Source: a virus
Direction: 5' to 3' (one strand)
IMG/VR virus record: IMGVR_UViG_3300029133_000263
DNA length: 64,000 nt
Shown here: positions 19,920 to 63,689 of the stretch, piece after piece
Layout: every line of letters starts with the position of its first letter
Position numbering within the stretch: the first letter of the stretch is position 1
Position numbers and translations under genes: made by a program
The notes under the pieces: model-generated
Database searches by the model: none
The model's input: only the letters and a program-made list of their open reading frames with translations
What the model was told of the DNA's origin: nothing

Positions 19920-20048
19920 TAAAAAGCCATCTGATACGAAGTTGGCTTGTGAATGTGAATGTAGCAGCTATCATCTTCCTCCAGTAGGGGGATGGTCGCT
20001 GCTTTTTTATTACAAGCCTCGAATGTTACGAGGAGAAAGAGAAAAATT

Positions 20049-35562: not shown

Positions 35563-35681
35563 CTCAAAAGCGCGGTTTTGTCCGCGCAGCTGCTCCAAAA
35601 GACAGCCTCCACGCGGCGAGCAGCGGGCAACGGGAGACAGTCCCGGCAAATTGTCTTTGAGACGGAAGGAAGAAGTGCCCT

Positions 35682-40546: not shown

Positions 40547-40574
40547 TTGCTAATCTGTGCGAATTGCGTACAAT
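40547..40574 (+). promoter_or_regulatory. family promoter (TTGCTA-N16-TACAAT, spacer ATCTGTGCGAATTGCG)
   Basis: read directly. Confidence 0.6.
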
Positions 40575-40644
40575 AGCAAATATAAAGTAGAAGTATATCG
40601 AATCGCTGCCCCGCATGAATTGCTTGTGCGGGGCTTTTTGTTTG
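40575..40644 (+). ncRNA. ~60-nt leader ending in an intrinsic terminator (GCCCCGCA..TGCGGGGC + T-run)
   Basis: promoter-proximal hairpin + U-tract directly before the 40659 gene. Confidence 0.4.
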
Positions 40645-40873: not shown

Positions 40874-40907
40874 AGGCAGGCTCATTTCGGGCCTGCTTGT
40901 TTTTTTA
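40874..40907 (+). terminator. intrinsic terminator
   Basis: GGCAGGC..GCCTGC stem followed by T8. Confidence 0.6.
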
Positions 40908-40915
40908 GGTGAAAT

Positions 40916-43111
40916 ATGACAATGACAAAGAAGATTGACTCCCGGCCCTACCAACAGGAAGCTGCTGCAGCGATTCACAGGGAGTGGGATGCCGGGAATA
41001 AGAAAACGCTGGTTGTGATGCCGACCGGAACCGGCAAAACTATTGTGTTTGCAAGCATCGTGAACGACCAGGTGGCAAAGGGCGAACACGTTTTGATTCT
41101 TGCGCACCGGGAAGAGCTTTTACAGCAGGCAAGCGACAAGCTCAAGATGGTGACGGGGCTAGAGACCGCGTTAGAGAAAGCACAAAGCTCGGCGCTCGAT
41201 TCCGATAAGATGGTCGTGGTTGCCAGTGTACAGACTCTCTCTAAGCAGAATCGGTTAATGAAGTATCCGCGTGATTATTTCGGGACTATCATCATTGATG
41301 AAGCGCATCACACGGCAACCAAAACTTACAAGGGAATTCTCGAGCATTTCATCGATGCCAAAGTGTTGGGCGTGACCGCAACACCCGACCGAAGCGACAT
41401 GAAATCCCTATCTGATATCTTTGATAGTCTTGCATTTGAATATAAGCTTCCGGATGCAATTCGGGAAGGTTATCTCTGCAAAATCAACACGAAGACGATT
41501 CCTGTCAAGGTGGATATCAGCAAAGTCCATATCAACGCCGGTGATTTCAGTGCTCAGGACCTCGGCAATGTTCTTGACCTGTATCTGGACACGATTGCGG
41601 ATGCCATTGTACGAGAATGCCAGAACCGAAAGACCGTTATCTTTACGCCTCTGGTACGAATCAGCAAAAGACTGTGCAATATCCTCAATAAGCGGAACTT
41701 CAAGACTGCAGAAGTCAATGGCGCGTCTGCGGACCGCGAGGACGTTCTGAAAGGATTCGACAACGGCGAGTACAAGGCGCTCACGAACGCGATGCTTCTG
41801 ACGGAAGGCTGGGATTGCCCGACCGTTGACTGCATCATTTGCCTGCGTCCTACCAGGAGCCGCAGCCTGTATGCGCAGATTGTGGGACGCGGAACACGTC
41901 TGTGTGAAGGGAAAAAGAATCTTCTCGTGCTGGATTTCCTGTGGCTGACAAAGAAACATAGTCTTTGCCATCCTGCTGATATTTTCTGTGAAGACCAAGA
42001 AGTGGCACAAAAGACCACCGATATGCTGGCGGATGCGGCACTCACCGGTTCGAATAGCCAGGAGAATTTCGGGAGTCCTGAATTGGGGCTGATTGAGGCA
42101 ATCGAGGAAGCACAGACTGAGCTGGACGAGGAAAAGCGGAAAGCACTGTGTGAACTCGAAAAGCAGGATACGATTCAGCGTAAACTCCAGGCACAGCGTC
42201 AAAAGCCGAGAGGGCTCGTTGACCCTCTGCAGTATATCTTCAGCATCGAAGCGCCGGAACTCAACGACTATCAGCCGATGTTTGAGAGTGAGAGGCAGGA
42301 GCCTTCCGATGACATCATCGATAGTATTTCGTGCTACGGCGTAAAAGGGGATGCCATCAAATCTCAGGGCCTTGCCGCTGCAATTCTCAAACGACTCATT
42401 GCTCGCAGAGCCAGCGGAATGGCTACCCCGAAACAGATTCGGTGTCTTGAAAGTTTTGGGTTCGTCCATGTTGGGCGCTGGACAATGCAGTATGCAAGCA
42501 GTTTCCTGAACGTCATCAGTTCTCATGACTGGGAGCTTCCAAATGGGTTCGACGCATCTACGCTGGACCCGGAAAAGAATACGGCGGACGACCTCGCCAA
42601 GCTGTATCCAGACTACAAGGAGGATGAGACGAAGAAAGCACCGCGTGGGGATGCTTTCATCTGCTGCTACTACGATGCAGGGTATAATTTAGCACGCAAG
42701 AAGGTCTGCAGCAGCGAGAAAGAAATGCTTAATATGTATTATTCGCTGTTCAACAATTGTGAAGCAAAGTACTTCTATTATATGAAGGAAGCTGATGCCT
42801 GGATGGCAGAAAAGCAGAATCTAATTGCCAGAAAGACCGGAACACCGATTTCTGCCGCACAGCCGACTCAGGCAACACCCGCAGTACCTCCTCCCTTTGT
42901 CCCGACAGCTCCCGCCAAGAGCCACGAATATTACTGCTGCCTTGCCCGATGGGATGGGTCCTACATTGGCTATGAAACTTACAAGAGTGAGCAGGCAGCA
43001 CAGAATGCCCGAAAGCAGATTGCCCGGCGCGGTGAGACGGCTGTGTATGCCACAGTAGAGGAAGCTGAAGCGTGGGTTGACAAGCAGAAGGCCGCAAGAA
43101 CTAGGAGGTAA
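40916..43111 (+). CDS. SF2 DEAH/ResIII-type helicase with ~350-aa C-terminal extension
   Basis: motif I VVMPTGTGKT, motif II IIIDEAHH, motif III GVTATPDR, motif VI QIVGRGTR. Confidence 0.8.
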   Translation: MTMTKKIDSRPYQQEAAAAIHREWDAGNKKTLVVMPTGTGKTIVFASIVNDQVAKGEHVLILAHREELLQQASDKLKMVTGLETALEKAQSSALDSDKMVVVASVQTLSKQNRLMKYPRDYFGTIIIDEAHHTATKTYKGILEHFIDAKVLGVTATPDRSDMKSLSDIFDSLAFEYKLPDAIREGYLCKINTKTIPVKVDISKVHINAGDFSAQDLGNVLDLYLDTIADAIVRECQNRKTVIFTPLVRISKRLCNILNKRNFKTAEVNGASADREDVLKGFDNGEYKALTNAMLLTEGWDCPTVDCIICLRPTRSRSLYAQIVGRGTRLCEGKKNLLVLDFLWLTKKHSLCHPADIFCEDQEVAQKTTDMLADAALTGSNSQENFGSPELGLIEAIEEAQTELDEEKRKALCELEKQDTIQRKLQAQRQKPRGLVDPLQYIFSIEAPELNDYQPMFESERQEPSDDIIDSISCYGVKGDAIKSQGLAAAILKRLIARRASGMATPKQIRCLESFGFVHVGRWTMQYASSFLNVISSHDWELPNGFDASTLDPEKNTADDLAKLYPDYKEDETKKAPRGDAFICCYYDAGYNLARKKVCSSEKEMLNMYYSLFNNCEAKYFYYMKEADAWMAEKQNLIARKTGTPISAAQPTQATPAVPPPFVPTAPAKSHEYYCCLARWDGSYIGYETYKSEQAAQNARKQIARRGETAVYATVEEAEAWVDKQKAARTRR

Positions 43112-43115
43112 TCAT

Positions 43116-43670
43116 ATGCGTACAGACAAGACGGCAAGCCACATTTGCTACGAGCTTGACCACGATGTGCAGGAATATGCGAAACGGCTTTTAGCCAAAA
43201 AAATTCTGCACGCGGCACAGCAGGACAATGCCGTTCCGTTCCCTGATGAAACGGCAAAGAGAATTGCCGAGACGGCGGTGTTTCTGACCGAACGCCTCAC
43301 GCTTTTGTATGAGGTCAGTTCTGGCTTTCGAGGCATTCGGTTCAGCGATTCCGGGAAACAACCCGCTGTTTATACTACCATGGTTCAGCGCAATGCTCCT
43401 TTGTACGATGAGCCGATGCTTGGGCGGGCCTACAACCTCGCCAGCTTCCTTGCCGCTGAAAATGCGGATATCAGAGAAGTGGTTTTGATGAAGCATGGGG
43501 TTTTGGCGGCAATTTATAATGCTGCTGCGCACATGAAAGAGCGGACTCCGGAGCCGGGGAAAATCACGGTTCAGAGCCAGCTGTTTGTGTCCACGGCGGT
43601 TGAGCTGTTCGATGGCCTTTCGGATGCGGCGACAGAAAAGAAGAACGACAGCGATAAAAGCGCTGCCTGA
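43116..43670 (+). CDS. hypothetical protein
   Basis: AGGAGG RBS. Confidence 0.5.
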   Translation: MRTDKTASHICYELDHDVQEYAKRLLAKKILHAAQQDNAVPFPDETAKRIAETAVFLTERLTLLYEVSSGFRGIRFSDSGKQPAVYTTMVQRNAPLYDEPMLGRAYNLASFLAAENADIREVVLMKHGVLAAIYNAAAHMKERTPEPGKITVQSQLFVSTAVELFDGLSDAATEKKNDSDKSAA

Positions 43671-43692
43671 GCTATAAATTAGGAGAATTTGT

Positions 43693-44145
43693 ATGATTCG
43701 ATTCAGAAAAGATACCCCTCGCTACTGGTTTATGAGTAACTATTATCCTTGCGAATTCGTGATGGATGGGATTCGTTACAAGAATGCCGAAGCAGCGTTT
43801 CAGAGCCACAAGGTTCCGCTGGAAGAGCGCAAACAATTTTCAGACATGCCTCCGGCAACGGCTAAGCATTTTGGCCGTCATGTGGCTTTTCCTGCCAACT
43901 GGGACGAAACCCGGGACGATGTAATGCGCCGCGTGGTGATGGCCAAATTCGAGCAGAATGAGGACCTCAAACAGCGCCTCCTCGAAACGGGTACGCAGCC
44001 TATTGAGGAAGACACGACCAGCTGGCATGACAACTATTGGGGCAACTGCCACTGCCCGAAATGCCGGAACATCCCGGGCCAGAATCGGCTCGGTATCATT
44101 CTGATGGAAACCAGGGACAAGCTGAAAAAGCAAGCGGCCAAATAA
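43693..44145 (+). CDS. NADAR / YbiA-like (DUF1768) domain protein
   Basis: FMSNYYPCEFVMDGIRYKNAEAAFQSHK closely follows the YbiA/NADAR N-terminal signature. Confidence 0.65.
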   Translation: MIRFRKDTPRYWFMSNYYPCEFVMDGIRYKNAEAAFQSHKVPLEERKQFSDMPPATAKHFGRHVAFPANWDETRDDVMRRVVMAKFEQNEDLKQRLLETGTQPIEEDTTSWHDNYWGNCHCPKCRNIPGQNRLGIILMETRDKLKKQAAK

Positions 44146-44260
44146 TGCTTGCAATGGCTTGCGGGTTCCATGTAATTAAAGGTGTAATCAAAAAGAATTA
44201 TCTTTTGCGAGGACTCCGTTGCTGACGGCGTTCTCGTTCTCTTTTTTTACAAAGACAAAA

Positions 44261-44298
44261 GGCTGCCGCCCATCATGGGCAGCAGCCTTCTTTTTTTG
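44261..44298. terminator. bidirectional intrinsic terminator
   Basis: GGCTGCCGCCCATCATGGGCAGCAGCC followed by a T-run. Confidence 0.6.
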
Positions 44299-44348
44299 TT
44301 TGTATCAACCGATAGGGCAGCAAATCATCTTGCCGCATTCAGAACGAC

Positions 44349-46235
44349 TCACTGAACAACCTCGCCAAGGTCGTTTGCATATTTCGGGTCACACATCATG
44401 AAGTAGTTGACGGGGCCGTACTCCAGACCGAGCTCCTGCGCGTATGCCTTGATGGCTTCCAGGACGTCCTCTTTCTTGAGGCCAAACTTGGAATGCAGAC
44501 GGGCAAACTCTTTGTCAGAGACAGAAACGCAAGAGCAATTTTCTGCATCGGTTTCTTTGCTGCCCAGCATCCCGTCAAAGATGTCCTGTCCTGCACAGAG
44601 AATCGTCTCATTGTTCATCACATAGGCGATAACGGAAGCCTTACAGTCAAAGTCGCTGTCTTCCACAAGGAAATCCTCAGGGCGGCCGTGACGTTCAACA
44701 ACGTTTTCATAGATGTCCCGGAGTTCGATAGGAGCAGAAGGAGCGGTCAGCGCTGCTTTATGAAGGCGCATGAATTCCACGAACTTTTCATCCGAGAGGG
44801 TATCGGTATAAAAGCCGATGCCGGAAACGCGAACCTTCACTTCGCTGGCAAAGTAATCGTCAATTTTGGAGACGATTTTCTGCTGGACCCGCTTGTATGC
44901 TTCCTGAACATTGGAAGCCGTGTAAAATACCGGAAACTTCATGATGTCGATTTCCTCCGGCAGACTCGCGTCATAGGCCGCATCAATGCCGCCTCGCAGC
45001 GCCGGAACCGCGTCATGCAGCTCTTTCACAGAAGAAATGTATCCGGTAATGTACAGCTCATCGTTTTTGCTGTAATGCCCGATAAGTCCCACATAGAGGG
45101 TCTGCATCAGCATCCGCTTGAAGCTGAACCAGCAAAGTCGAATAGGAAGAATGACGTTTGCGGCCGAACCTTCCGCGTGATAGTTGCTGGGTGCAGAGAC
45201 CTTTTCCAGCAGAATCTGGCCGTTCTTGTCACCGTATTTTTCCTTGAAAAGAGCTTGAAGAATTTCAGTGGACGAAAGAGGAGTGGACATTGGAATCGTT
45301 TCATTCAGAAAAGAGAGGAATGCATCCACGTTGTCTTTCTGCCATGCGTCATCAGACATGCTTGCACGCTGCATAGAGAGCTTGTCTTTCCCGTCGTCAG
45401 GCAAGGGCTCATACCCACAGGCGATACGAAGCTCGTTCTCCGTGACAGCATCCGTTGCGCTTGCAATTTTCTTGAGGGTGTTTTCGGTCGGCTGAGCTTT
45501 TGCGTTGCCATTCACGAGGCTGCTGATATACCCACGAGTCAGTCCTGCCTGAAACGCAAACTTACCCTGTGTTCGGGTTCCGATGGCTTTTTTGACCAGC
45601 GATGCCAGCCTTTGAAAGTCGGGCTCTTTGGGAAAGGTGGCCTCCGTATCCTTATTGCTGTTCTTTTCAAGTACCGACTTGTCCCAACCGGTGACAAGAG
45701 AATACCCAATATCCTTCAAGGATTGGTAGGCAACCCCGTTCTGGTCAAGAGCCGGGGAGAATGTACCGCTGTTATCTTCCAGCTGCTCTACTGCCTCACG
45801 CACCATCCTTGCTTCGTTCATCAGGATGACGTCCGGGGCTTCAAGCCGGGCAAGACTCTTGTACCGACTATTGAGGCGCTCGACTCGTGCGGCCAATGCA
45901 GTGATGTTGGCAACTTGGCCCTTCGTTGCATGGGCAGAGATATCTGCACCAAGTTCAAAATGGTTCAGTGCAGGAATATCCACGCTTTTGCTCTTGGCGA
46001 ATTCCACAATGGCTTCCGCGCCATAGAAACGCTTCTCATGGGCTGCGACAACTTTCGTTATCGTGTCGGCCGAGTTGTCCAGCTCAAGCACTTCACCTTT
46101 TCCGGCATCCTCGACATAACACCTGGCGTTGGTGAGAAAGCCTTTCAAAAAATCAGCATCCACATCCAGCTTCTTAGCGATGCCGGGCAGCTGCTTATAG
46201 AAAATCACGGGTGTGGCGAGGTTAACAGAAATCAT
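44349..46235 (-). CDS. large (628 aa) protein with central XRE-family HTH domain; candidate element regulator
   Basis: HTH_3-like segment GKFAFQAGLTRGYISSLVNGNAKAQPTENTLKKIA; divergent from tandem family promoters. Confidence 0.6.
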   Translation of the reverse strand: MISVNLATPVIFYKQLPGIAKKLDVDADFLKGFLTNARCYVEDAGKGEVLELDNSADTITKVVAAHEKRFYGAEAIVEFAKSKSVDIPALNHFELGADISAHATKGQVANITALAARVERLNSRYKSLARLEAPDVILMNEARMVREAVEQLEDNSGTFSPALDQNGVAYQSLKDIGYSLVTGWDKSVLEKNSNKDTEATFPKEPDFQRLASLVKKAIGTRTQGKFAFQAGLTRGYISSLVNGNAKAQPTENTLKKIASATDAVTENELRIACGYEPLPDDGKDKLSMQRASMSDDAWQKDNVDAFLSFLNETIPMSTPLSSTEILQALFKEKYGDKNGQILLEKVSAPSNYHAEGSAANVILPIRLCWFSFKRMLMQTLYVGLIGHYSKNDELYITGYISSVKELHDAVPALRGGIDAAYDASLPEEIDIMKFPVFYTASNVQEAYKRVQQKIVSKIDDYFASEVKVRVSGIGFYTDTLSDEKFVEFMRLHKAALTAPSAPIELRDIYENVVERHGRPEDFLVEDSDFDCKASVIAYVMNNETILCAGQDIFDGMLGSKETDAENCSCVSVSDKEFARLHSKFGLKKEDVLEAIKAYAQELGLEYGPVNYFMMCDPKYANDLGEVVQ

Positions 46236-46472
46236 GGTGTACTCCTTTCAAATATGTCATTAGGTGTACAATGCTGTCATCTTCTGTAATTATAATAGCA
46301 CATCCCGCACCAAAAAGCAAGCAAGAATTTACAATAAATGACAAGAAAATACACGAGATGACATATTTGAGTGTGACGGCTGATTTTTGAGTCTTTCCTG
46401 TTCAGCAGCGGAACAAGCCTTGTGCGTCTTGTCTATGCCATGACTTTGCCACTGTTTTGCCACAGTTTTGCC

Positions 46473-46500
46473 TTGTGCATCCGTGCAAATTGAATATTAT
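46473..46500 (+). promoter_or_regulatory. family promoter (TTGTGC-N16-TATTAT, spacer ATCCGTGCAAATTGAA)
   Basis: read directly. Confidence 0.55.
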
Positions 46501-46560
46501 TGTAAATATAGGATGAATCAGTGTGAGCTGCAGAGATTAGGAATTCTGCGGCTCTTTCTT
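46501..46560 (+). ncRNA. ~58-nt transcript ending in a terminator (GAGCTGCAGAG..TCTGCGGCTC + T-run); tandem copy 1
   Basis: starts AAATATAGGA; no ORF. Confidence 0.4.
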
Positions 46561-46688
46561 ATGTGGCCCCTAAAAGTCGTGATAAATGCACGCGTGCGTT
46601 CTAAAAATGTGTGCGTGCGTTTTTTGTGTATTTTCACGCATTTATCGCTCGTTATTTGTGTGGGGTAGTGTTTTGCCATAATTTTGCC

Positions 46689-46716
46689 TTGTGCATCCGT
46701 GCGAATTAAATATGAT
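46689..46716 (+). promoter_or_regulatory. family promoter (TTGTGC-N16-TATGAT, spacer ATCCGTGCGAATTAAA)
   Basis: read directly. Confidence 0.55.
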
Positions 46717-46779
46717 AAGAAATATAAGATAAATAAGTGTGAGCCGTAGAGATTGAGTTTCTGCGGCTCCTTTCTTTTG
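46717..46779 (+). ncRNA. ~60-nt transcript ending in a terminator; tandem copy 2, followed by a second hairpin terminator at 46784-46821
   Basis: GAGCCGTAGAG..CTGCGGCTC + T-run. Confidence 0.4.
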
Positions 46780-46825
46780 TGGTCCCCATGCGGATGAAAA
46801 TGTCTGCGTGGGGTTTTTTTTAATT

Positions 46826-48016
46826 ATGGAATACTTGTATAAGCAATATAACAACGAACCCGGGAAAGCTCCGACAGGAGAAAAATATATATACGTTATT
46901 ACTGAAATAGAAACAGGAAAAATGTATATAGGACAAACCAGTAATTTCCACGCTCGTATGCGTTCGCATAGAACCTGCAAGTGCAACCAACATAGCGCAA
47001 TTGATAGAGCTATTCAAGAAAAAGGTGCGGACGCATTCCAATATGAGATTTTAGAGTTGTGTGCTGCTGATGACGCTGATAGCAGAGAACGATATTGGAT
47101 AGAAAAATCCGATTCTTGCAATGAACAAAAAGGTTTCAATACGTTTAAGGGCGGCCAAAAGAGTTTTTCAGATGAAAACTACTCTATGCTTGTAGAAATG
47201 CTTCAGCAAGGAATGACATTAAAGACTGCGTGTGACGCTATAAATACCTCTATTGCTTCTGCAAGGAGAGAATTGAAGAGGCGAGACACAAATTTGTCGG
47301 AAATCCGCTGTTCGGCAGCCGAACATAAATATCTGCGCCGCAAAAGCACTCTCGGAAAAGAAATCAATATAGCTGACGTACTGAAAATGTATCAAAATGG
47401 CATGTCATCGAAAGAAATAGCAGAGCACTATGGTATGAACTCATCCGCTTTTTATCGCCGGTTAAAAGAAAATGGGTTGAGCGCCAGAGCAATTGCTCAG
47501 CCAAATTACGGAACAGCATCTGCTCTTTTCGACAAAGATAAAGCTATTGCAATGTGTAAAGACGGATATTCTGCCAGCGAGATAGGCGATGCTATGGGAT
47601 TGCCGTATTACACAATAGAGAGGCTTCTTCGAAAGTCTGGATATTCTATATCATTGATTGCAGATGAAGAAGCAGCAGATAAAAGAAAGAAGCGAAACAA
47701 AAAACGAAGCCAAAATGGAAACTTCAATTTTGAAATGGCCGTTGATTTTTTAAGAGAAGGTTACAAGATACAAGCGATAGCTGATTTGATGGGCATATCA
47801 GATGCTCACCTAAGAACAAAGCTCAAACAAAACGGCTTTGATTTAGAAAAAACGCTTCCAATTATAGTCTGTGACGAAACGGGCGAAACGTTTCTTACAA
47901 TGATAGAAGCGGCAAAAGCGTACAACGTAAGCTATACATCACTACGGAAATGTTTTGAAAAAAAGCAGGGTTACTGTGGCGGCTACCATTGGCACAAAGA
48001 AAAGCAGAATTTTTGA
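46826..48016 (+). CDS. GIY-YIG nuclease domain protein with three HTH repeats and NUMOD-like C-terminus (homing-endonuclease-like)
   Basis: KYIYVITEIETGKMYIGQT...R..H GIY-YIG motif; repeated (Y/M)..G.S..EI......S...Y.RL..NG units. Confidence 0.65.
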   Translation: MEYLYKQYNNEPGKAPTGEKYIYVITEIETGKMYIGQTSNFHARMRSHRTCKCNQHSAIDRAIQEKGADAFQYEILELCAADDADSRERYWIEKSDSCNEQKGFNTFKGGQKSFSDENYSMLVEMLQQGMTLKTACDAINTSIASARRELKRRDTNLSEIRCSAAEHKYLRRKSTLGKEINIADVLKMYQNGMSSKEIAEHYGMNSSAFYRRLKENGLSARAIAQPNYGTASALFDKDKAIAMCKDGYSASEIGDAMGLPYYTIERLLRKSGYSISLIADEEAADKRKKRNKKRSQNGNFNFEMAVDFLREGYKIQAIADLMGISDAHLRTKLKQNGFDLEKTLPIIVCDETGETFLTMIEAAKAYNVSYTSLRKCFEKKQGYCGGYHWHKEKQNF

Positions 48017-48063
48017 CTCCAATGCAAAATACAGCATCGGATTTTTTATTGGGAGATATAGAC

Positions 48064-49050
48064 ATGGCAAAGAATGAGAATCTGCACAAGGCAAAGGACG
48101 CGAAGAACGACGAGTTTTATACCAGAATCGAGGATGTTGCAGAGGAACTACGGCACTACAAAAAGCATTTCGCGGGCAAGGTCGTATTCTGCAACTGCGA
48201 TGACCCGACATGGTCCGCTTTCTGGCGGTATTTCCACCTGAACTTTGCAGAACTTGGCTTAAAGAAGCTGATTTCCACGCACTACGACCGTACAGAACCC
48301 ACCTATAAAATGGAGTACGAGGGCGGAGATGACAACAATGTAGAAGTCGGAGTCAAGACTCCGCTGGAAGGCAACGGTGATTTCCGGAACAAAGAATGCC
48401 TTGACCTGCTGGATGAGTGCGACATCGTAGTCACAAATCCTCCATTCAGCTTAGCTAGAGCCTATGTCCAGTATCTACGTGAGCACAATAAGCAATTCGT
48501 TATTATTGGGGACCTCAACTGGATTACATACAAAGAAATTTTCCCGATGCTGAAAGATAATGAAATCTGGCTGGGATATTCTTCTGTAAAAGAGTTCACG
48601 CAACCTGACGGGACAATCAAGAAGTTCGGGAATAAATTGTGGTATACCAACCTCGACATCCAGAAACGTCACGAGAAGCTGATTCTCTGGCAGCGGTACT
48701 ATGACGATGACGGGAATCCGCTGCCGGATGCAGAGGAGCGCTACCCCCACTATGATAACTACGACGCTATCAACGTGGATAGGGTCGCCGATATTCCGAT
48801 GGATTATCAAGGTGTAATGGGTGTGCCGATTACATTCTTGAATGGTTACAATCCGGAGCAGTTTGAAATTGTGGAGTTAAGTAGATATCTTAACCATGAA
48901 GGAATGTCTAAGAAATTCGTTGAAACGTATTACAAACAAGGCGGAAAAGGCCAAATTAAAGAAGGTCATCCAGACCTTTGCTATTATGATGACAAAGGTA
49001 AAGCAATCGTTCCATACATGCGAGTCCTTATAAAGAAAACAATTGCTTGA
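48064..49050 (+). CDS. putative N6-adenine DNA methyltransferase (orphan)
   Basis: catalytic-type DIVVTNPPFS motif; GGGAGA RBS; no cognate restriction gene recognised. Confidence 0.6.
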   Translation: MAKNENLHKAKDAKNDEFYTRIEDVAEELRHYKKHFAGKVVFCNCDDPTWSAFWRYFHLNFAELGLKKLISTHYDRTEPTYKMEYEGGDDNNVEVGVKTPLEGNGDFRNKECLDLLDECDIVVTNPPFSLARAYVQYLREHNKQFVIIGDLNWITYKEIFPMLKDNEIWLGYSSVKEFTQPDGTIKKFGNKLWYTNLDIQKRHEKLILWQRYYDDDGNPLPDAEERYPHYDNYDAINVDRVADIPMDYQGVMGVPITFLNGYNPEQFEIVELSRYLNHEGMSKKFVETYYKQGGKGQIKEGHPDLCYYDDKGKAIVPYMRVLIKKTIA

Positions 49051-49103
49051 AATTGAATGTAATGTGCTTATTCTTTTTGTAAATAATGAGAGGAGAAAAA
49101 GCA

Positions 49104-49886
49104 ATGAAACTGATTGAATATCCCACGATGAACGCGGATATGTATTCACGCGTTACATCAAATTATTCGTACTCTCCTTTTGAGTGTGTTACAACACCGT
49201 GGAGAAGCTATCCAAGCACACCTATTAAAGTACCTCATCCCGATACATGTCCATGCTGCAATAAAGTAATGTCGGATGATTTGAGCCCGGTAATGGCAAT
49301 TAACAACATCAACATCGGAGAAGAAAAATACGAAAAATGCAAAGTAGTATCAGTTTATAGATGTGCATCGTGTAATTCGCTATTTGCAATTTGGAGTGAA
49401 CATAAAGCAATCGAGCAAGACGAAACAACATTGGAAAATTTATCATATACATGCAAAATACTTGCCATGTTTCCTTTTGAAAAAGTTACAGTATTTACTC
49501 AAAACATTACCAATTTGTCTGCGGAATTTGTATCTGTATTTAATCAAACTGAAATCGCAGAAGCGCAAAATTTGAATGATATTTGTGGTATGGGGTACAG
49601 GAGAGCATTAGAGTTTTTGGTGGATGCTTACATACGGAAAAATAGACCCGCAGAAACCATTGATGCGAGCCTCCCTCTCAGCAAAAAAATACGCGATTAT
49701 ATCGATAACGAGCAAATTAAAACATTAGCACAAAAATCGGCGTGGCTTGGAAATGATGCTACGCACATTGTAAACAATCATCCAGATAGAAGTGTAAAAG
49801 ATGTCAAAAAATTTATAAAAGCTATAACAGCAATAATTGATGCCGAATTTGCTTGTGAAGACGCAAGTACCATAGAAAGGAATTGA
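49104..49886 (+). CDS. hypothetical protein with N-terminal Cys4 zinc ribbon and DUF4145-like C-terminus
   Basis: CPCC...CASC; C-terminal ..WLGNDATHIVN.. resembles DUF4145. Confidence 0.45.
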   Translation: MKLIEYPTMNADMYSRVTSNYSYSPFECVTTPWRSYPSTPIKVPHPDTCPCCNKVMSDDLSPVMAINNINIGEEKYEKCKVVSVYRCASCNSLFAIWSEHKAIEQDETTLENLSYTCKILAMFPFEKVTVFTQNITNLSAEFVSVFNQTEIAEAQNLNDICGMGYRRALEFLVDAYIRKNRPAETIDASLPLSKKIRDYIDNEQIKTLAQKSAWLGNDATHIVNNHPDRSVKDVKKFIKAITAIIDAEFACEDASTIERN

Positions 49887-49892
49887 ACAACA

Positions 49893-50396
49893 ATGAAAAT
49901 CACAGAAACGAAAATCAAGGTATCTGACCTTGTCGAGAACTACAAGGACAATGGTGATGGCGGAGTCTTTGGCTACAACGACCGCCTTACGATTCGCCCG
50001 TCTTTCCAGCGCGAGTTCATTTATGGAGAAAAACAGCGTGCAGCCGTCATCGATTCCGTAATGAACGGATTCCCTCTGAACGTCATGTACTGGTCTAAGA
50101 CCGGGACTGACACATACGAGGTTCTTGATGGGCAGCAGCGTACCGTCTCTATTGCTCAGTACATCAACAAGGATTTTCCTATCAAAATCAATGGCAACGA
50201 TAAGTTCTTCCAAAACTTGACCAACGAGGAAAAGCAGACAATTCTGGACTATGAACTGACGGTTTATGTCTGCGAAGGTACTGAGGCAGAGAAGCTGGAA
50301 TGGTTTAAGCGCATCAACATCGCTGGTGAAGTTCTGACTCCGCAGGAACTGCTGAATGCTACTTATACAGGACCGTGGCGTGGCCGGTTCGCCTGA
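49893..50396 (+). CDS. DUF262 (ParB/Srx-fold, GmrSD-N-like) domain protein, apparently truncated
   Basis: RPSFQREF and VLDGQQRTVS motifs. Confidence 0.55.
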   Translation: MKITETKIKVSDLVENYKDNGDGGVFGYNDRLTIRPSFQREFIYGEKQRAAVIDSVMNGFPLNVMYWSKTGTDTYEVLDGQQRTVSIAQYINKDFPIKINGNDKFFQNLTNEEKQTILDYELTVYVCEGTEAEKLEWFKRINIAGEVLTPQELLNATYTGPWRGRFA

Positions 50397-51231
50397 AATT
50401 TTGGGATTCAATCATTTTGAGCAGGCAATCGATAACCAAACGGATACCGTCATCTACGCGGTCAACAAATTCGTCAGTTTGCTTGTGCAGGGCAACCCCA
50501 ACATTATCGAACTTCTTGGCAATGACCCGGAGTTGTACGTTAATATGACACCGGAAGGCCAAATGCTGCTCGACAACAAAGAGCTATTTTTGACTCGCCG
50601 CATTGCCTATAGCTACGGCGGATTTGCGAACGACCAGCTCAGACGCCTGCAGATGGGCCTTCTTCGGAATGGGACCTCGCCAGAAGCATTTAAGAACAAA
50701 TTTGAGAAGAGGAGCTTGGAACGGTCGATTGCCGGTTGGGGTAAGGATGACATTTTTGAAATCTCCATCAGCGAAGATGCGGATGAAGAAGGCAAACATC
50801 CGCTCCTGATTTCCGGCAATTTGAACGATTATCCGGTCACCTCTCTCAAGTCCCTGCTAAAGAGTCTGACTACGACCATCGACCAGTATGAGCAGCCGCA
50901 GCATCCGAAAGCACAAAAAGATGCTGCCCACATCAACAAACACGCGATGCACATTGTGCGGCTGTACTACACCGCGTTCGATATCCTGGAAAAGGGCGAA
51001 ATCATCACTCGCCGGGACAAAGAGCGAGAAGAGCTGTTGGCGATTCGCAACGGCAAGTACCTGCGTGAAGACGGGTCGTATGCACCGGAATTCTTCGAGT
51101 TTGTTGATGCGCTTGAAAAGAGATTTCAGGATGATGCAAGGAAGACTGCACTTCCTGCGAAACCTGACTTTGGAAAAATTGAGGAGCTTCTGGTGGAAAT
51201 CAACAAGGAATATTTGCGGCGTATCGTGTAA
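50356..51231 (+). CDS. hypothetical protein; possibly the frameshifted continuation of the DUF262 gene
   Basis: overlaps the previous ORF by 41 nt in another frame; no independent RBS. Confidence 0.35.
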   Translation: MLLIQDRGVAGSPEILGFNHFEQAIDNQTDTVIYAVNKFVSLLVQGNPNIIELLGNDPELYVNMTPEGQMLLDNKELFLTRRIAYSYGGFANDQLRRLQMGLLRNGTSPEAFKNKFEKRSLERSIAGWGKDDIFEISISEDADEEGKHPLLISGNLNDYPVTSLKSLLKSLTTTIDQYEQPQHPKAQKDAAHINKHAMHIVRLYYTAFDILEKGEIITRRDKEREELLAIRNGKYLREDGSYAPEFFEFVDALEKRFQDDARKTALPAKPDFGKIEELLVEINKEYLRRIV

Positions 51232-51348
51232 AGCGGAACACCAACGACAACAACCATCAAGGTTGTACAAGATTATGCGCTCATCCGCAAAATGCGGGTG
51301 GGCGTTCTTTTTTTGCAAAAAAACAAAAATAAAACATAGCAAAAAACC

Positions 51349-51376
51349 TTGCACATCTGTGCGAATCAGATATAAT
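51349..51376 (+). promoter_or_regulatory. family promoter (TTGCAC-N16-TATAAT, spacer ATCTGTGCGAATCAGA)
   Basis: read directly. Confidence 0.6.
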
Positions 51377-51444
51377 AACCCTAATAAGATAAGAATTGTG
51401 CCCTGGCGGCTTCTGAATTGGATGCTGCCGGGGCATTTTGTTTG
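51377..51444 (+). ncRNA. ~60-nt leader ending in a terminator (GCCCTGGCGGC..GCTGCCGGGGC + ATTTTGTTTG) directly before the helicase gene
   Basis: hairpin with two G-U pairs followed by a U-tract. Confidence 0.4.
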
Positions 51445-51461
51445 TTAAGGAGAATTTGGCT

Positions 51462-54182
51462 ATGACACTGAACGACTTGTCAAGCGAACAACAGGAATTC
51501 GTACATTTGGCATTGTCGGGCAAAAACGTATTATGTGATGCCTGCATTGGCAGCGGAAAAACATCGACCATCAACGTGCTCTGTGATGCGTACCCTCCAG
51601 AACGGCGTATCCTGTACTTGACCTATAACCGATTACTCAAACTTGACGCCAAAGACAAAATCAAAAATCATAATGTCTTGGTTCAGAACTATCATGGATT
51701 TGCAAGCCTGCTGCTGAACAAAAAGGGAATCCGGAATTGCGGGCAGGGTGAACAGCTTGCCATGGTATTGGAAAAGAAAATTCCGATTCCGCCAATTGAT
51801 ACTCTTATCATTGACGAGTATCAGGATATCAATGACGAGATTGCAGAACTGCTCAAATATATCCGTTCTCAGAATCCGGGCCTTCAAATCGTCGCAGTGG
51901 GCGATATGAAGCAGAAAATCTACGATGATACAGCGCTGGATGTCTGGGAGTTCATGCAGGATTTTCTCGGCCGCCATGAACAGGTGGTTTTCACGAAATG
52001 CTTCCGTATTTCTCATGACTTGGCAGAACGACTCGGCAATATCTGGGGCAAGACCATCAACGGCGTAAATGGTTCCTGCATCGTGGAACAGATGTCAGTC
52101 GATGAGGTGACGGAGTTTCTGAATAAACAAAATCCGAAAGATGTTTTGTGTCTGGGCGCTCGAATCGGGGCTATGACGAAGGTTCTCAATGACCTGGAAA
52201 ATCGCCCCGGAAACCTCTATGACAAGCATCATGTCTATGCAAGTATCGCGGACAATGACGGAGACAAGGCGGTAGCACCTTCCTCAGATGTCGGCATCTT
52301 CACGACTTTTGACGGCAGCAAAGGTATGGAGCGACCTATCTGTGTCGTGTTCGATTTCACGGAAGAATACTGGTCGTCCCGCACAAACAAGCCGATGTCA
52401 CGATATGAGATTCTTCGGAATCTGTTTTGTGTCGCAGCAAGCCGAGGAAAGCAGCGGATTATCTTCGTGAACTATGACCATCCGTTGAGCGATAAATCCC
52501 TGATGACTCCGACTGGAATGAATTGCGTGTTCCGGCATCCGTTTTCGTTCTCCGAGATGTTCGACCACAAATTCATCGAAGATGTGGATGCCTGCTATAA
52601 GCTGCTGGAAGTCACACCGATTGAGCACAACGACAATACGACCATCGATGTGCAGGCAGCGGATGCCATGATTGACTTGTCTCCCTGCATCAGCATCTAT
52701 ATGCAGGCAGGGTTCTTCAACTCCTACGACATTGATGACGCACTTGCATATTATATGGACCTGCATGATGATATGCAGTATTTGAAAATCAAGAAGGGGG
52801 CAACGGTCGAGGATAAGGTTCTGCTGCTCACGGCGCTTGAAACGAATCAGTGCCGGTATGTAAAACAGGTCAAGCCTCCTTTTGTGAACGCAAAAGCCAA
52901 AATGTCGCTCAGTATGCGGCTTGGCACCGTGTTCACTCCCGATGAGTATGTTCAGGCACGCGGAGATATCGACATCCATACTAATGACCATAAAGTAATT
53001 TATACTTCGGGCCTTGCGGATGTCGTAAAGAACAACACCGTCTACTGCATCAAGTTCATCAGCAGTCTGGCACACAAGCATTTTCTGCAGTGTGCGTGTT
53101 CTATGATTGCGCTGGGTCTTCCATATGGCGTTGTCTGGAACGTCAAAAGCAACCTGATGTACAGCGTAAAAATCAAGGATAAGGACGCTCTGATTGACGC
53201 AATCCTCAAGTGCATCACGAAACGAGCTTACAACGGCGCGGATTATTACACCTGCCGAAAAGGCTTTGTACAGGATACGGCATCGATTATCGACCGCTGG
53301 ACTGACGACGGATATGCGGAAGAACCCATCGCCATCACTTCCGGCGACGGTATCGCCATCATCAAGCAGGGAACTCGCTATTTTGTGATGGACGGGGCAC
53401 GCCGAAACACTCTGAACGATAATTTAGGGCTTGGTTTTGCCGATGTAAAAGATGCCTGTCTTGCATATGCAAAAAGCTGTGAACTACAGAAAGCCGTGGA
53501 CCGTGATTCTCCTTATTCCGAAGTTGAGTTTTGGCTCGACCAGAACAAGGCATTTGAGGAATACATGACGCAGGCGAGCCATGAAATCGAACAGCACGAA
53601 GAAGGACCGTATGCCAAATACAAGTCTTTCGCTGCGCCTGTCGTCCGAAAGATGCTGGCGGAAAAGGGACTGACCATCACGTTCCCGGAAAAAGCCCTCA
53701 TCAAGGTTTGGAAGATGCGCCGCGCCGAAGATGCCATGTATCAGAAAATCGAGGAAGCAAAGAAGCAGAACAATTCTAATGTACCGCTTGATGAAGCGTT
53801 CTTTGATTCTGAACTGGTGGATTCCGTCGAGGGAAATACCGAAAGCGCTAAGGCAAAAACCAAACCCAAAAAGGAATCGGCACTGCCGTTTTCCAAGTAC
53901 GGTGCAGATGAAAAGAAGAGTTACCGTGTCGTGAAAAGCGATGAGCTCTCAAAGCCCAACCAGCCCCGTTATGTTGTGGTCGAGACGGCTACCGATAAGG
54001 TCCTGGACAACGCAAACGGATACGGATACCTCTCCTATCAGGCTGCCTGGAAAGGGTATTCGTACAAGAGCAAGCATCATCTGGATGGGGCAAAGAAGCC
54101 TATGAGCAAGAGCGCAAAAGAACGGGCTAAGAAAAAGGCAGCTTTCTTCTCGACCGATTCGGAACAGCTCAGTTTCGGCTGA
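51462..54182 (+). CDS. SF1 (UvrD/AAA_19-like) DNA helicase, 906 aa, Lys-rich C-terminal tail
   Basis: Walker A DACIGSGKTST; Walker B LIIDEYQD; AAGGAG RBS. Confidence 0.75.
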   Translation: MTLNDLSSEQQEFVHLALSGKNVLCDACIGSGKTSTINVLCDAYPPERRILYLTYNRLLKLDAKDKIKNHNVLVQNYHGFASLLLNKKGIRNCGQGEQLAMVLEKKIPIPPIDTLIIDEYQDINDEIAELLKYIRSQNPGLQIVAVGDMKQKIYDDTALDVWEFMQDFLGRHEQVVFTKCFRISHDLAERLGNIWGKTINGVNGSCIVEQMSVDEVTEFLNKQNPKDVLCLGARIGAMTKVLNDLENRPGNLYDKHHVYASIADNDGDKAVAPSSDVGIFTTFDGSKGMERPICVVFDFTEEYWSSRTNKPMSRYEILRNLFCVAASRGKQRIIFVNYDHPLSDKSLMTPTGMNCVFRHPFSFSEMFDHKFIEDVDACYKLLEVTPIEHNDNTTIDVQAADAMIDLSPCISIYMQAGFFNSYDIDDALAYYMDLHDDMQYLKIKKGATVEDKVLLLTALETNQCRYVKQVKPPFVNAKAKMSLSMRLGTVFTPDEYVQARGDIDIHTNDHKVIYTSGLADVVKNNTVYCIKFISSLAHKHFLQCACSMIALGLPYGVVWNVKSNLMYSVKIKDKDALIDAILKCITKRAYNGADYYTCRKGFVQDTASIIDRWTDDGYAEEPIAITSGDGIAIIKQGTRYFVMDGARRNTLNDNLGLGFADVKDACLAYAKSCELQKAVDRDSPYSEVEFWLDQNKAFEEYMTQASHEIEQHEEGPYAKYKSFAAPVVRKMLAEKGLTITFPEKALIKVWKMRRAEDAMYQKIEEAKKQNNSNVPLDEAFFDSELVDSVEGNTESAKAKTKPKKESALPFSKYGADEKKSYRVVKSDELSKPNQPRYVVVETATDKVLDNANGYGYLSYQAAWKGYSYKSKHHLDGAKKPMSKSAKERAKKKAAFFSTDSEQLSFG

Positions 54183-54336
54183 TTATTACTGCCGATGAGA
54201 GGAGGTGTATCAAGCGCAGCTTCAGGACGTTGCACGTTGTTTTCCAACACAAATAAAATCACAAATCGGAAAATCCTTCTGAATATCACATAACAAATAT
54301 CAGACATATGCCCACATAGGCAGAAAGGAATTACAG

Positions 54337-55203
54337 ATGGGACGCTATAATTTTAATCAGAGGACTCGGGACGGCTACGAAATCTCGCCCGAACAGGCGG
54401 CAAGATGGCTTGAAAGAAACGACAATAATCGAAACGTCAACGTCGCTAAAGTCAAAAAGATGGCAAAGGACATGAGAGAAGGGCATTGGGATACAACGCA
54501 TCAGGGTATTGCCATCGCCTCCGATGGTACGCTGGTCGATGGACAGCACCGGCTGCTTGCTATCGTTGAATCCGGTGTGACCGTGCGTATGAACGTGACC
54601 TTTAATGCCGCCAAGTCTCAGCACATCGATTCCGGAAACATCCGCTCCATGGCAAATCGCGTGCAGATGTCTGAGTACGATATGAGCTGGACAAACAATA
54701 CGATTCTCTCCGCAGCAAATCTCATTGGCCGCGTATTCACGGGTTCCAACCTCAGTCACGAGGAAGCCTTGAGTGAATGGCTGATGAAATACCGCACGCA
54801 AATCGAATCTGCCACCAAATGCATCAAGAAGGCTACGCTGCCGGGACTCAATTCTGCAGGCACAACAGCCGCTATCATTGTAGCCGCCATGAACGATGTC
54901 CCCGCCATCTACATTGAGAAATTCATGGACGTGTTCTATTCTGGATTCACCAACAACGAAGCCGAGCATTATGCTATCACGCTGCGGGACGAACTGCTGC
55001 GCGAAAACCGTGTCAAGCGCGGCACACAGTATGCAAGGTTTGCCTTTTTCCGTACTGCCAATCGCCTGAACCAGTATTACAAGACTGCCACCGGGCAGCG
55101 GGTTGCCAAGCGTGTCAACAATGGGGATTTTCCGTACAACGTCTATGACGCAAACGGCGGAATCGTAAAGCCCGAAACCAAGAAAACCAAGAAGGCTGTG
55201 TAA
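54337..55203 (+). CDS. ParB N-terminal domain (ParB/Srx-fold) nuclease-like protein
   Basis: LVDGQHRLLAI motif typical of ParBc-like domains. Confidence 0.55.
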   Translation: MGRYNFNQRTRDGYEISPEQAARWLERNDNNRNVNVAKVKKMAKDMREGHWDTTHQGIAIASDGTLVDGQHRLLAIVESGVTVRMNVTFNAAKSQHIDSGNIRSMANRVQMSEYDMSWTNNTILSAANLIGRVFTGSNLSHEEALSEWLMKYRTQIESATKCIKKATLPGLNSAGTTAAIIVAAMNDVPAIYIEKFMDVFYSGFTNNEAEHYAITLRDELLRENRVKRGTQYARFAFFRTANRLNQYYKTATGQRVAKRVNNGDFPYNVYDANGGIVKPETKKTKKAV

Positions 55204-55313
55204 TTTCAAAATGGCTTGAATCTTTGAGGTTGTATATATGTTGCAAAGTTCAGATACAACCCCAAAAATTCCGATAAATCGCATAAAAGATTGTTGCAAG
55301 GAGGACAAAAACC

Positions 55314-55589
55314 ATGAATAAGTTTGAAGCAAGGAGCACGCTGGGGAGCGAGGCTGTCCCGGTTTTCGACGATGACGGTGAGCTCACAGAATGGCTGCAC
55401 CGGGACAACTATACTGTCGAGGAATTGGAACTGATGAACTTTGTCGGCAATGAAAAGCCCGTCATCAAAAAGGACGGTGTGAAAATCATCCGGGATGGCA
55501 CGGTCATTCGGAGAACCAACACTGAAACAAGAAAAACTGAATTTCTGTTCATTCCGCGCATTGTCGTCGATGAGCAGAAAACCGTGTGA
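55314..55589 (+). CDS. hypothetical small protein
   Basis: AGGAGGACAAAAACC RBS. Confidence 0.45.
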   Translation: MNKFEARSTLGSEAVPVFDDDGELTEWLHRDNYTVEELELMNFVGNEKPVIKKDGVKIIRDGTVIRRTNTETRKTEFLFIPRIVVDEQKTV

Positions 55590-55879
55590 GGTGCAGCGTG
55601 GTAAAAATTTACGGGTCGAGTGATGACCTTGTCTGCCTGGATAATTCCAACTATGGGGTCGATGAAATTGGTTGCTTCGATGTCAAGGGAGTTCGGCTAT
55701 TTCTGGACGACGACACCATTTTGGTAGTGCGCTATACGAACGGTATCTGGCGCATCGAAATCGAGCGAAAAGGCACGGCACCGTATCAACGCACGGTTTG
55801 TCCTGGCGATGATGAGGACGATTATAGCGATGTGTTTTGTACGGAGTCCGATATCATCGCACATGAAATCATTCGATAA
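55586..55879 (+). CDS. hypothetical small acidic protein (GTG start; 55586 or 55598)
   Basis: ORF coupled to the previous gene. Confidence 0.35.
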   Translation: MRCSVVKIYGSSDDLVCLDNSNYGVDEIGCFDVKGVRLFLDDDTILVVRYTNGIWRIEIERKGTAPYQRTVCPGDDEDDYSDVFCTESDIIAHEIIR

Positions 55880-55893
55880 GGATTGGAGTAGCC

Positions 55894-56559
55894 ATGGCAA
55901 AAACTCTTCTGACTCAAAAAATAGAATCAGCGCTAAAGGTTTGGCATCCTGCCAACTATGGTGGATACCGGGTTGATTCGTTCCGTCAAGGCTTCGACGC
56001 TCTGGAAGTACCTGTCGAGTGTGGCTCGATAAAATCCGGCCTTGTTGACTTCGTTCGGGTTCAAGAGTGCTTCACATCAGAAACAAAATGTGGGACCTGC
56101 AAGCTGTCGATGTACAAAGACGAAGACAAAGACTTAGTTATGCCGTCCATCCAACAATGGACGCAGGAAGTGTCATGCCCTAAAGACATCTCCAGCTGGA
56201 ATTTTCGAAACGAACCCTGCACGGAACGGTTCTGCAGGCTGTACAAAACGAAACATACATACACCATCGACACTGTCATCACCTGTGTGGAAATCAAAGT
56301 TTCGGTAGGGGATTTTCATTCTGACCACGGCCACAACTTTGTAGGGCACTGCAACTACTACGCAATGCCGTTAGCGTTGTATAAGAAAGTGAAAGACGAG
56401 ATTCCTGACGGCATAGGCGTTTTGATTCATTATGACGGCGAAAACGCCTGCGGAATTCGCAAGAAAGTGGAGTGCAAGCCTCATCAGCTTTCAGAAGAAA
56501 GCCAAAAATGGCTCATCATGTCGGTTGCGAAACGGCTTGCAAAAGCAAGTGGAAGTTGA
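55894..56559 (+). CDS. hypothetical protein, possible PD-(D/E)xK nuclease fold
   Basis: D...EIK arrangement (VDFVRV ... CVEIKVSVGDF); many Cys/His. Confidence 0.4.
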   Translation: MAKTLLTQKIESALKVWHPANYGGYRVDSFRQGFDALEVPVECGSIKSGLVDFVRVQECFTSETKCGTCKLSMYKDEDKDLVMPSIQQWTQEVSCPKDISSWNFRNEPCTERFCRLYKTKHTYTIDTVITCVEIKVSVGDFHSDHGHNFVGHCNYYAMPLALYKKVKDEIPDGIGVLIHYDGENACGIRKKVECKPHQLSEESQKWLIMSVAKRLAKASGS

Positions 56560-63544: not shown

Positions 63545-63572
63545 TTGTGCATCTGTGCGAATTGCATATAAT
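63545..63572 (+). promoter_or_regulatory. family promoter (TTGTGC-N16-TATAAT, spacer ATCTGTGCGAATTGCA)
   Basis: read directly. Confidence 0.6.
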
Positions 63573-63689
63573 ACAAAATATAGAACGAAAGGCATCAAAA
63601 AATATCGTTGGTCGGGCAAAATCGGACCAAAAGGCTAGGGCAGCTCGGAAATACAGAAGGAGTCAAATCTAATGGAAAGGAGGCTTCAC

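Follow-up and report, generated by a model that had tools for sequence, protein, structure and literature searches.

A conserved gene unit and a hypervariable hotspot of promoter-delimited modules in the accessory arm of a probable Hodor-type megaplasmid

What is a dense run of genes for nucleic-acid enzymes doing on a DNA that is catalogued as viral? The question is raised by the IMG/VR record IMGVR_UViG_3300029133_000263, of which a stretch of 64,000 nt (the window) was analyzed, and in particular by its positions 40,916–56,559, where a first-pass annotation had listed helicases, nucleases, a NADAR protein and a methyltransferase, and had likened the approximately 16 kb to the anti-defence cargo of plasmid leading regions. 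The answer to which we assign a probability of roughly 60% is that the stretch belongs to the long, one-directional accessory arm of a conjugative megaplasmid of the "Hodor" G1 type, and that it consists of a conserved unit and a hypervariable hotspot of promoter-delimited modules. The hotspot of the window copy comprises a GIY-YIG module, a decayed three-gene module resembling a restriction-modification (R-M) system, and a run of stand-alone mobile-element genes, while an oppositely oriented gene between the two parts encodes a protein with an XRE helix-turn-helix (HTH) and a domain resembling the RNA polymerase clamp, probably a transcription regulator.

The division into a conserved unit (40.5–44.3 kb) and a hypervariable hotspot (46.2–56.6 kb) emerges from the comparison with about 40 near-identical contigs (siblings), in which genes were counted over 31 loci chosen as carrying the superfamily 2 (SF2) helicase. 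The helicase, a gene of 184 amino acids (aa) and the NADAR gene are found in 31 of these 31 loci. The genes of the hotspot are patchy (the methyltransferase and DUF262 genes in 9 loci, the superfamily 1 (SF1) helicase in 8, the GIY-YIG and RlaP genes in 7 each, the ParB/Srx gene in 3), and the 10 kb past the NADAR gene hold 105 protein clusters across approximately 32 loci. Alternative cargo at the same site includes three versions of a module composed of a methyltransferase, a variable middle gene and a DUF262/HNH protein, type I modification and specificity (M+S) genes, type I-C cas genes (Cas5d, Csd1, Cas7), IscB, TnpB, a PLD/NgoFVII-like nuclease and, in one sibling, Lar. The breakpoints between siblings fall at the family promoter and leader on the left edge of the hotspot (46496, 46564–70 and 46670, with 18 of them at the first two places), at gene boundaries (48039–73, 49874–93, 54056–54244 and 56544–76) and at the next promoters (51231–51343 and 58223–50). 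The block 46670–48073, i.e. a promoter copy with the GIY-YIG gene, behaves as one discrete module; in one sibling (L001) a 7.1-kb deletion runs from codon 45 of the GIY-YIG gene to the end of the SF1 helicase gene, and deletion junctions carry microhomology. It is at promoters, leaders and the edges of genes that modules are acquired, exchanged and lost.

The promoters in question form a σ70-like family with the consensus TTGC-N7-GTGCGAA-N6-AnAAT, in which the motif in the spacer is conserved as well. A pattern search of the window revealed 11 copies, against approximately one expected by chance, and weaker copies raise the total to about 13; without exception they lie on the plus strand, between 15 and 64 kb. 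A regular-expression search of 362 kb of sibling DNA returned 63 copies on the plus strand and none on the minus strand; the conjugation genes are nearly devoid of them. A hairpin resembling an intrinsic terminator follows, within 30–60 nt, roughly every second copy, those of the island among them. Two copies, A (46473) and B (46689), stand in tandem ahead of one unit and are 85% identical. Thus the first-pass annotation was right that units of the island lie behind a family promoter or leader terminator (three units are so preceded, at 40547, 46473/46689 and 51349). The genes are co-oriented behind this common promoter family, but the shared regulation is not specific to the island, since at least 13 copies are spread over the whole arm from 15 to 64 kb. 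Three TTTTGCC(A) repeats with 11-bp phasing abut the −35 element of copy A (46436–46472) and a similar pair precedes copy B (46669–46689); these repeats may be binding sites of an activator. At the right end of the window (63545–64000), a family promoter precedes the start of a TnpB-like open reading frame (ORF; 63692 on) that runs off the window, which would be a transposon-type nuclease under the element's own promoter. The features of the unit, the hotspot and the gene between them are collected in Table 1.

Table 1. Promoters, terminators and genes of the conserved unit, the intervening minus-strand gene and the hotspot (positions in the window)
Feature	Position	Strand	Remarks
Family promoter, unit 1	40547–40574	+	TTGCTA-16-TACAAT, GTGCGAA in spacer
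Leader intrinsic-terminator hairpin, unit 1	40608–40641	+	about 35 nt past the promoter
Predicted membrane peptide, 66 aa	40659–40859	+	called as a gene in all siblings
SF2 helicase, 731 aa	40916–43111	+	ResIII (9e-36) and Helicase_C
Lineage-specific ORFan, 184 aa	43116–43670	+	
Orphan NADAR (YbiA-type ADP-ribosyl glycohydrolase)	43693–44145	+	NADAR 1e-26
Strong terminator between convergent units	44257–44291	− (as called by the scan)	16-bp stem; ends the 628-aa gene
628-aa protein	44349–46235	−	GGAG ribosome-binding site, strong terminator; called in all siblings
Candidate operator upstream of the 628-aa gene	46248–46370		42-nt inverted repeat, 74% complementary, TGTCAT/ATGACA half-sites
Family promoter copy A with two leader hairpins	46473–46622	+	left edge of the hypervariable hotspot
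GIY-YIG module	46670–48073	+	promoter copy B, leader hairpin, terminator, 396-aa gene (46826–48016)
Family promoter copy B	46689–46716	+	heads the GIY-YIG module
EcoRI-family N6-adenine methyltransferase, 328 aa	48064–49050	+	intact; 1e-105, NPPF motif
Zinc-ribbon DUF4145-like protein, 260 aa	49104–49886	+	variable middle gene of the module
DUF262 nuclease, truncated	49893–50396	+	N-terminal 163 of 378 aa left, HNH deleted; GmrSD_N/DUF262 8e-22
RlaP nucleotidyltransferase remnant, 291 aa	50356–51231	+	without the catalytic N-terminal 50 aa; terminator at 51277–51305
Family promoter (51349–51376) with leader hairpin	51349–51445	+	ahead of the SF1 helicase
SF1 UvrD-like helicase, 906 aa	51462–54182	+	
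ParB/Srx-fold protein, 288 aa	54337–55203	+	invariant DGQHR motif
Two small ORFs, 91 and 93 aa	55314–55879	+	without assigned function
MmcB-like PD-(D/E)xK protein, 221 aa	55894–56559	+	D...EIK motif

The deletions that shape the hotspot have also affected the window copy itself. Near-identical siblings encode a 378-aa protein with DUF262 and HNH domains at this place; the window is 1.75 kb shorter there than the intact siblings, with the junction in the microhomology CGTGGC, and this one deletion took the HNH half of the nuclease together with a pair of small genes and the start of RlaP (50 codons), including the catalytic GS...DxD motif. The remaining 167-aa DUF262 product aligns to residues 1–163 of a 372-residue type II restriction-enzyme model of PADLOC (1e-67). 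The 291-aa ORF that follows is a dead RlaP remnant and not the second half of a DUF262 gene, because the deletion removed its start; hence of the "split DUF262 gene" proposed earlier the domain stands and the split does not, the gene having been cut. In a similar manner, the methyltransferase was correctly recognized as to its family, and it is not a long-standing orphan: it is 100% identical to sibling copies that adjoin an intact nuclease, so that its partner must have been lost only recently. The R-M cassette has a GC content of 41%, against 47–50% in its surroundings. A methyltransferase with an intact nuclease, as in a type II R-M system, is present in siblings (L003, L005, L006 and L179–L186) and not in the window; a DUF262 and DUF1524/HNH protein without a methyltransferase, as in GmrSD/type IV systems, does not fit either, since the gene is truncated here and always paired with a methyltransferase in siblings. 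The lone methyltransferase can presumably still protect its carrier against the same module in siblings.

The other enzymes named by the first-pass annotation were mostly confirmed by hidden Markov model (HMM) searches: this holds for the ResIII-type SF2 helicase, the NADAR/YbiA protein, the UvrD-like SF1 helicase and the homing-endonuclease-like GIY-YIG protein, which gives a Pfam GIY-YIG match (2e-10), contains several HTH repeats and matches the HEase models of PADLOC. Its catalytic domain, DNA-binding modules and patchy occurrence, independent of the neighbouring genes, point to a free-standing GIY-YIG homing endonuclease. The predicted ParB-N nuclease-like protein is indeed a member of the ParB/Srx superfamily, with the ParB-N/sulfiredoxin fold and a GxxR-type nucleotide-binding motif (here DGQHR). 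For the DUF4145-like zinc ribbon, the CxxC pairs and a match to phrog_1305 (7e-32) agree with the earlier call, with the DUF4145 score itself (21.6 bits) under the Pfam cut-off; the PD-(D/E)xK-like call receives weak support from MmcB-like (22.4 bits against a cut-off of 22) and phrog_2776 (2e-17). Missing from the earlier list were the 628-aa gene, the 184-aa ORFan, the 66-aa membrane peptide and several small ORFs. What the data show are the identities of the genes, the variability of the modules, the deletion and the promoter family; the functions and the regulation suggested here for these genes are predictions from sequence.

The conserved left unit is, in our opinion, the best candidate for a role in protecting the plasmid, either by counter-defence or by repair of incoming DNA, as would fit the combination of an orphan NADAR, a RadD-like helicase and a fast-evolving ORFan. 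The SF2 helicase has a RadD-like core with GTGKT and DEAH motifs and a C-terminal part of 380 aa without assigned function; among solved structures E. coli RadD is the closest to it (3e-33), it matches the NCBIfam RadD model with 5e-51, far below the cut-off of that model, and the type I, type IV and Pbe enzymes that PADLOC returns for it align with the helicase core only. The 184-aa ORFan, with only 18 relatives among 1.8 billion representatives, shows 77–100% identity between sibling loci where the helicase shows 95–100%. DarT acts on single-stranded DNA, the form in which conjugating plasmids enter cells. No DarT-like match was found beside the NADAR gene in the HMM and PADLOC scans (its neighbours are the helicase, the ORFan and the HTH protein), i.e. 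the pairing of DarT with a NADAR or macrodomain antitoxin that defines a DarTG toxin-antitoxin system is not seen. NADAR enzymes undo the guanine ADP-ribosylation made by DarT1 (PMC11543638), and orphan NADARs of phages (T4 gp30.3, AdfN) counter DarTG1 (PMC11825919). By analogy, the NADAR of the unit would strip DarT-type ADP-ribose from guanines of the incoming single-stranded plasmid DNA, and the unit as a whole would protect or repair the plasmid's own DNA.

The anti-defence reading put forward by the first-pass annotation is plausible for the conserved left unit (orphan NADAR, upstream AcrVA2-like gene) and not for the variable part. No sibling locus that extends far enough upstream is without the AcrVA2-like gene and the genes around it. 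The AcrVA2-like gene encodes a 295-aa protein 2 kb upstream of the unit (38073–38960, plus strand), with a precomputed AcrVA2-like (PF26125) match and none in our own Pfam search. A second hairpin follows the membrane-peptide gene (40874–40905), and the terminator between the convergent units is assumed to end unit 1 as well. An Rfam search of 40.4–58.4 kb with E-values up to 1 revealed no RNA family, barring two matches at chance level.

The island sits on a conjugative element, as supposed earlier. According to Pfam searches of the large ORFs, the first 15 kb of the window are conjugation genes, encoding an M23 peptidase, the coupling protein of a type IV secretion system (T4SS; T4CP) and a VirB4-like ATPase, and directly 5' of the window lie genes for a pilin, a 1772-aa protein and a RecD2-like helicase. 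The accessory arm begins at about 15 kb and runs on through the window, in which nearly all coding is on the plus strand and the GC content is near 47%. Many contigs from human-gut metagenomes, the longest of 280 kb, and dozens of contigs in IMG/VR encode identical copies of window proteins; the siblings filed in IMG/VR as viral measure 28–188 kb. A sister family, at 40% identity in the 628-aa protein, has contigs of about 345–351 kb. A megablast search of the region against plasmid and phage collections gave no match, and the best matches of VirB4 among known plasmids are to Oscillospiraceae megaplasmids, at an identity of only 38%. No host could be assigned: the sole GTDB match is a 6.5-kb contig binned to a metagenome-assembled genome of Phascolarctobacterium, by a binning that we do not trust. 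Hodor conjugative megaplasmids have been described by Yuan et al. (bioRxiv 2026; PMC12934698) from thousands of human gut metagenome samples, and from the human gut only. They average 357 kb and fall into two deep groups, of which G1 has a GC content of 47.1%, Rep_3, ParA/B/M and three sortases; they encode VirB4 and VirD4 without a canonical relaxase, have genes for a MOBH-like HD nuclease and for a separate helicase beside those for replication, partition and the T4SS, with a putative origin of transfer (oriT) just 5' of the HD nuclease gene, and are routinely taken for viruses by standard pipelines. We regard the element as a probable Hodor G1 megaplasmid, a likeness drawn from described features and not from sequence comparison with a named Hodor genome.

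Several further features of the arm were recorded. Two adjacent genes (19125–21608) encode repeated DUF4379 treble-clef zinc fingers and contain internal DNA repeats of 51–86 nt; a relative of 622 aa is hotspot cargo in one sibling (L085). A HEARO RNA (the ωRNA family of IscB; 91 bits, above the gathering threshold) lies at 30881–31141 on the plus strand, flanked by a family promoter (30783) and a flotillin gene. An IscB ORF does not adjoin it; siblings have IscB elsewhere in the arm. A ribozyme resembling that of hepatitis delta virus, of the F. prausnitzii type (60 bits, above gathering), is found at 35589–35658 (plus strand) directly 3' of a VWA gene. At 36691/36692 the window lacks 274 bp that siblings have within a gene for a 155-aa Mor-like regulator, which is thereby disrupted here.

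Does the region enter a recipient first? The interpretation of the whole 16 kb as a leading-region island that arrives ahead of the rest and at once disarms R-M, DarTG or CRISPR systems appears unlikely to us. It would account for the uniform gene orientation (all island genes but one are on the plus strand; in leading regions the orientation is such that the T-strand serves as template), for the orphan NADAR and the AcrVA2-like gene upstream, and for Lar and the orphan type I M+S genes in siblings. The same arm also encodes a Y-family polymerase, and UmuC-type genes frequently accompany leading regions (PMC11541004); a common promoter could, in addition, yield zygotic induction. However, ssb, psiB and ardA were not found among the scanned ORFs. 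There is no Frpo-like hairpin across the −35 and −10 elements; judged by the criteria of PMC11541004, three promoter regions folded as single-stranded DNA show terminator hairpins only, and about half of the promoters have a terminator after them. The same slot is filled in siblings by intact R-M and cas genes, and the predicted oriT and relaxase of Hodor plasmids reside in the backbone near the T4SS genes (PMC12934698). At 60 kb or more, the arm also extends far past the approximately 30 ORFs used to define leading regions. Between about −18 and +74 kb, counted by window positions, no relaxase or oriT was recognized; Pfam searches, which covered all large window ORFs and the 10 kb that precede the RecD2-like helicase, gave no relaxase, and a look for the motifs of an HD nuclease was unconvincing. 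In conjugation, the relaxase gene usually enters last. With the oriT and relaxase predicted near the T4SS genes, and with this polarity, the island, 25–45 kb downstream of the T4SS block on a plasmid of roughly 350 kb, would enter late. Leading-region status thus finds no support, and neither does an anti-defence composition of the whole island, as the variable half holds mainly defence genes and selfish nucleases, judging from the intact R-M, type I M+S and I-C cas genes of siblings at that site.

The gene between the conserved unit and the hotspot is the most unusual item of the region, the remainder being ordinary for a mobile element. It lies on the minus strand, and the overlapping plus-strand ORF has no support. 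The 628-aa protein is composed of an N-terminal domain resembling the clamp of RNA polymerase β′, an XRE HTH (aa 222–269) and a C-terminal α/β domain. The profile of its family matches residues 262–330 of β′ in more than 60 solved chains (E-values 4e-8 to 8e-7), the single sequence matches the NCBIfam rpoC model at aa 108–175, and the similarity of the clamp helices (aa 108–176) to E. coli β′ is visible even by eye in the stretch RLEAPDVILMNEARMVREAVEQLEDN. The matched segment of β′ we take to be the clamp helices, at which σ region 2 and NusG/RfaH dock. The protein is probably a transcription regulator; no relatives were found in plasmid and phage collections. A DNA-binding protein that displays the docking surface for σ or NusG could tether or titrate these factors, and if it does so it would be a kind of regulator for which no precedent was found in the literature searched. 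Since NusG favours intrinsic termination in Bacillus (PMC8060035), one can conceive of a link between the protein and the leader terminators. That it alone represses the promoter family is made less likely by about 7 of 31 siblings in which it is absent or truncated while the promoters are retained.

These features permit a bolder proposal, to which we give a low probability, namely that the accessory arm is a dedicated regulon and gene-capture platform run by the 628-aa protein as a β′-like decoy for a factor of the σ or NusG type. Dozens of co-oriented modules would each have the same promoter with an invariant GTGCGAA in the spacer, often followed by a leader terminator; throughout the arm of defence and counter-defence genes, the DNA-tethered decoy would determine initiation or the passage of polymerase through terminators, and the repeated promoters would double as homology for the swapping of modules.

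For the right-hand part of the hotspot, the interpretation as mobile-element genes that travel independently competes with a single new multi-gene defence system, made up of the SF1 helicase-nuclease, the ParB/Srx protein, the two small proteins and the PD-(D/E)xK protein. The genes are co-transcribed behind one family promoter within a defence hotspot, like many defence systems they bring together folds of helicases, nucleases and NTP-binding proteins, and weak matches of the GajB type are obtained with the helicase. These matches are short, however (aa 120–200), and no GajA was found, so that the unit is not a Gabija system; four of the five are without a PADLOC match. The ParB/Srx protein has homologues (at 47% and about 27% identity) in other regions of conjugative or phage-like character, where they stand by themselves, accompanied by neither helicase nor nuclease. 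The family of the SF1 helicase is a very large one of mobile elements, its members uniting a roughly 600-aa helicase with PDDEXK_3, and behaves as a backbone-like gene of small mobile elements; the one member examined lies in a small mobile-element-like context with defence genes adjacent. Finally, two siblings (L001 and L093) keep the genes from ParB/Srx to PD-(D/E)xK without the helicase, and elsewhere the helicase precedes different genes. A single system is thus distinctly improbable. A common RNase-H1-like hybrid-binding domain in the C-termini of both helicases was considered and dropped (BLASTP E-value 0.46). The neighbouring metallo-β-lactamase-fold protein (57062–58222), which has a C-terminal Ada-type zinc domain and is conserved adjoining the hotspot, is not a good candidate for Apyc1: it has a lipoprotein signal peptide and a faint match to the Apyc1 family of Pfam. 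A secreted nuclease of the ComEC type resembles it better than does Apyc1, which is cytoplasmic.

That the element is a jumbo phage or phage-plasmid with an early host-takeover region is very improbable: siblings are indeed filed in IMG/VR as viral contigs, PHROG matches are many and the content is T4-like in part (Seg-like GIY-YIG, AdfN-like NADAR, Mor-like regulators, YqaJ), but T4CP, VirB4 and the pilin are present, the window holds no structural phage genes, and the Hodor class, which lacks TerL except in inserted prophages, explains the viral misclassification (PMC12934698).

Some observations count against our preferred interpretation, an accessory arm of a Hodor G1-type plasmid with a protective unit and a hotspot. 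Two siblings (L180 and L185) have IscB in place of the SF2 helicase, so that the left unit is not strictly essential; this IscB (RRXRR and HNH, 456 aa; 13374–14744 of the locus) lies between the membrane peptide and the 184-aa gene. The NADAR protein weakly matches a model named "anti-phage NADAR" (59 bits, the cut-off being 240), for which reason it could be a defence gene instead of a counter-defence one. The immunity to sibling modules attributed to the retained methyltransferase is an evolutionary argument, and the Hodor identity is a matter of shared features (GC content, gut origin, misclassification as viral, degraded I-C CRISPR-Cas and no canonical relaxase). If the interpretation is right, a part of the previously undescribed accessory genes of Hodor plasmids is now seen as a modular hotspot, and the turnover of R-M, CRISPR-Cas, homing-endonuclease and candidate counter-defence genes between near-identical plasmids offers a natural system for studying conflicts of plasmid versus plasmid and of plasmid versus host in gut Bacillota. 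That a conjugative plasmid carries an orphan NADAR further suggests that DarT-type ADP-ribosylation of incoming single-stranded DNA may be a barrier to conjugation.

How does the region compare with known systems? Phages, satellites and integrative and conjugative elements possess hotspots in which variable defence and counter-defence cargo lies between conserved core genes. The present hotspot is similar in its flanks of at least 95% identity, its many alternative R-M, CRISPR-Cas and nuclease modules and its frequent deletions, and differs in that the modules usually bring or use a copy of the element-specific promoter, with breakpoints at those promoters. The R-M-like module corresponds to the type II systems with a DUF262/HNH nuclease in PADLOC (REase_II PDLC03418 and MTase_II; 6e-102 for the methyltransferase and 1e-67 for the N-terminus of the nuclease), except that the HNH half is deleted in the window and that the module invariably has three genes, the middle one being variable (DUF4145-like, DUF4238 or another). 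With the phage protein AdfN (T4 gp30.3) the NADAR protein shares a stand-alone form of about 150 aa on a mobile element without DarT (PMC11825919) and a weak match to Pfam Phage_30_3 (5e-4), although the likeness is at the superfamily level only. The leading-region anti-defence islands of plasmids (Samuel et al. 2024, PMC11541004) likewise consist of co-oriented genes on a conjugative element and include an orphan methyltransferase and candidate anti-defence genes; unlike them, the present region is without a recognized oriT in its vicinity, Frpo-type promoters are missing, as are ssb, psiB and ardA among the scanned ORFs, and intact defence systems occupy the same site. The Hodor preprint (PMC12934698) does not discuss defence or anti-defence cargo, a leading region, the promoter family or the clamp-like regulator, whereas in other respects there is agreement with G1: human gut origin, about 47% GC, VirB4/VirD4 with no canonical relaxase, type I-C cas genes, frequent TnpB, misclassification as viral, contigs of up to 280 kb here and about 350 kb in the sister family, and a division into two deeply diverged groups, of which the sister family is reminiscent.

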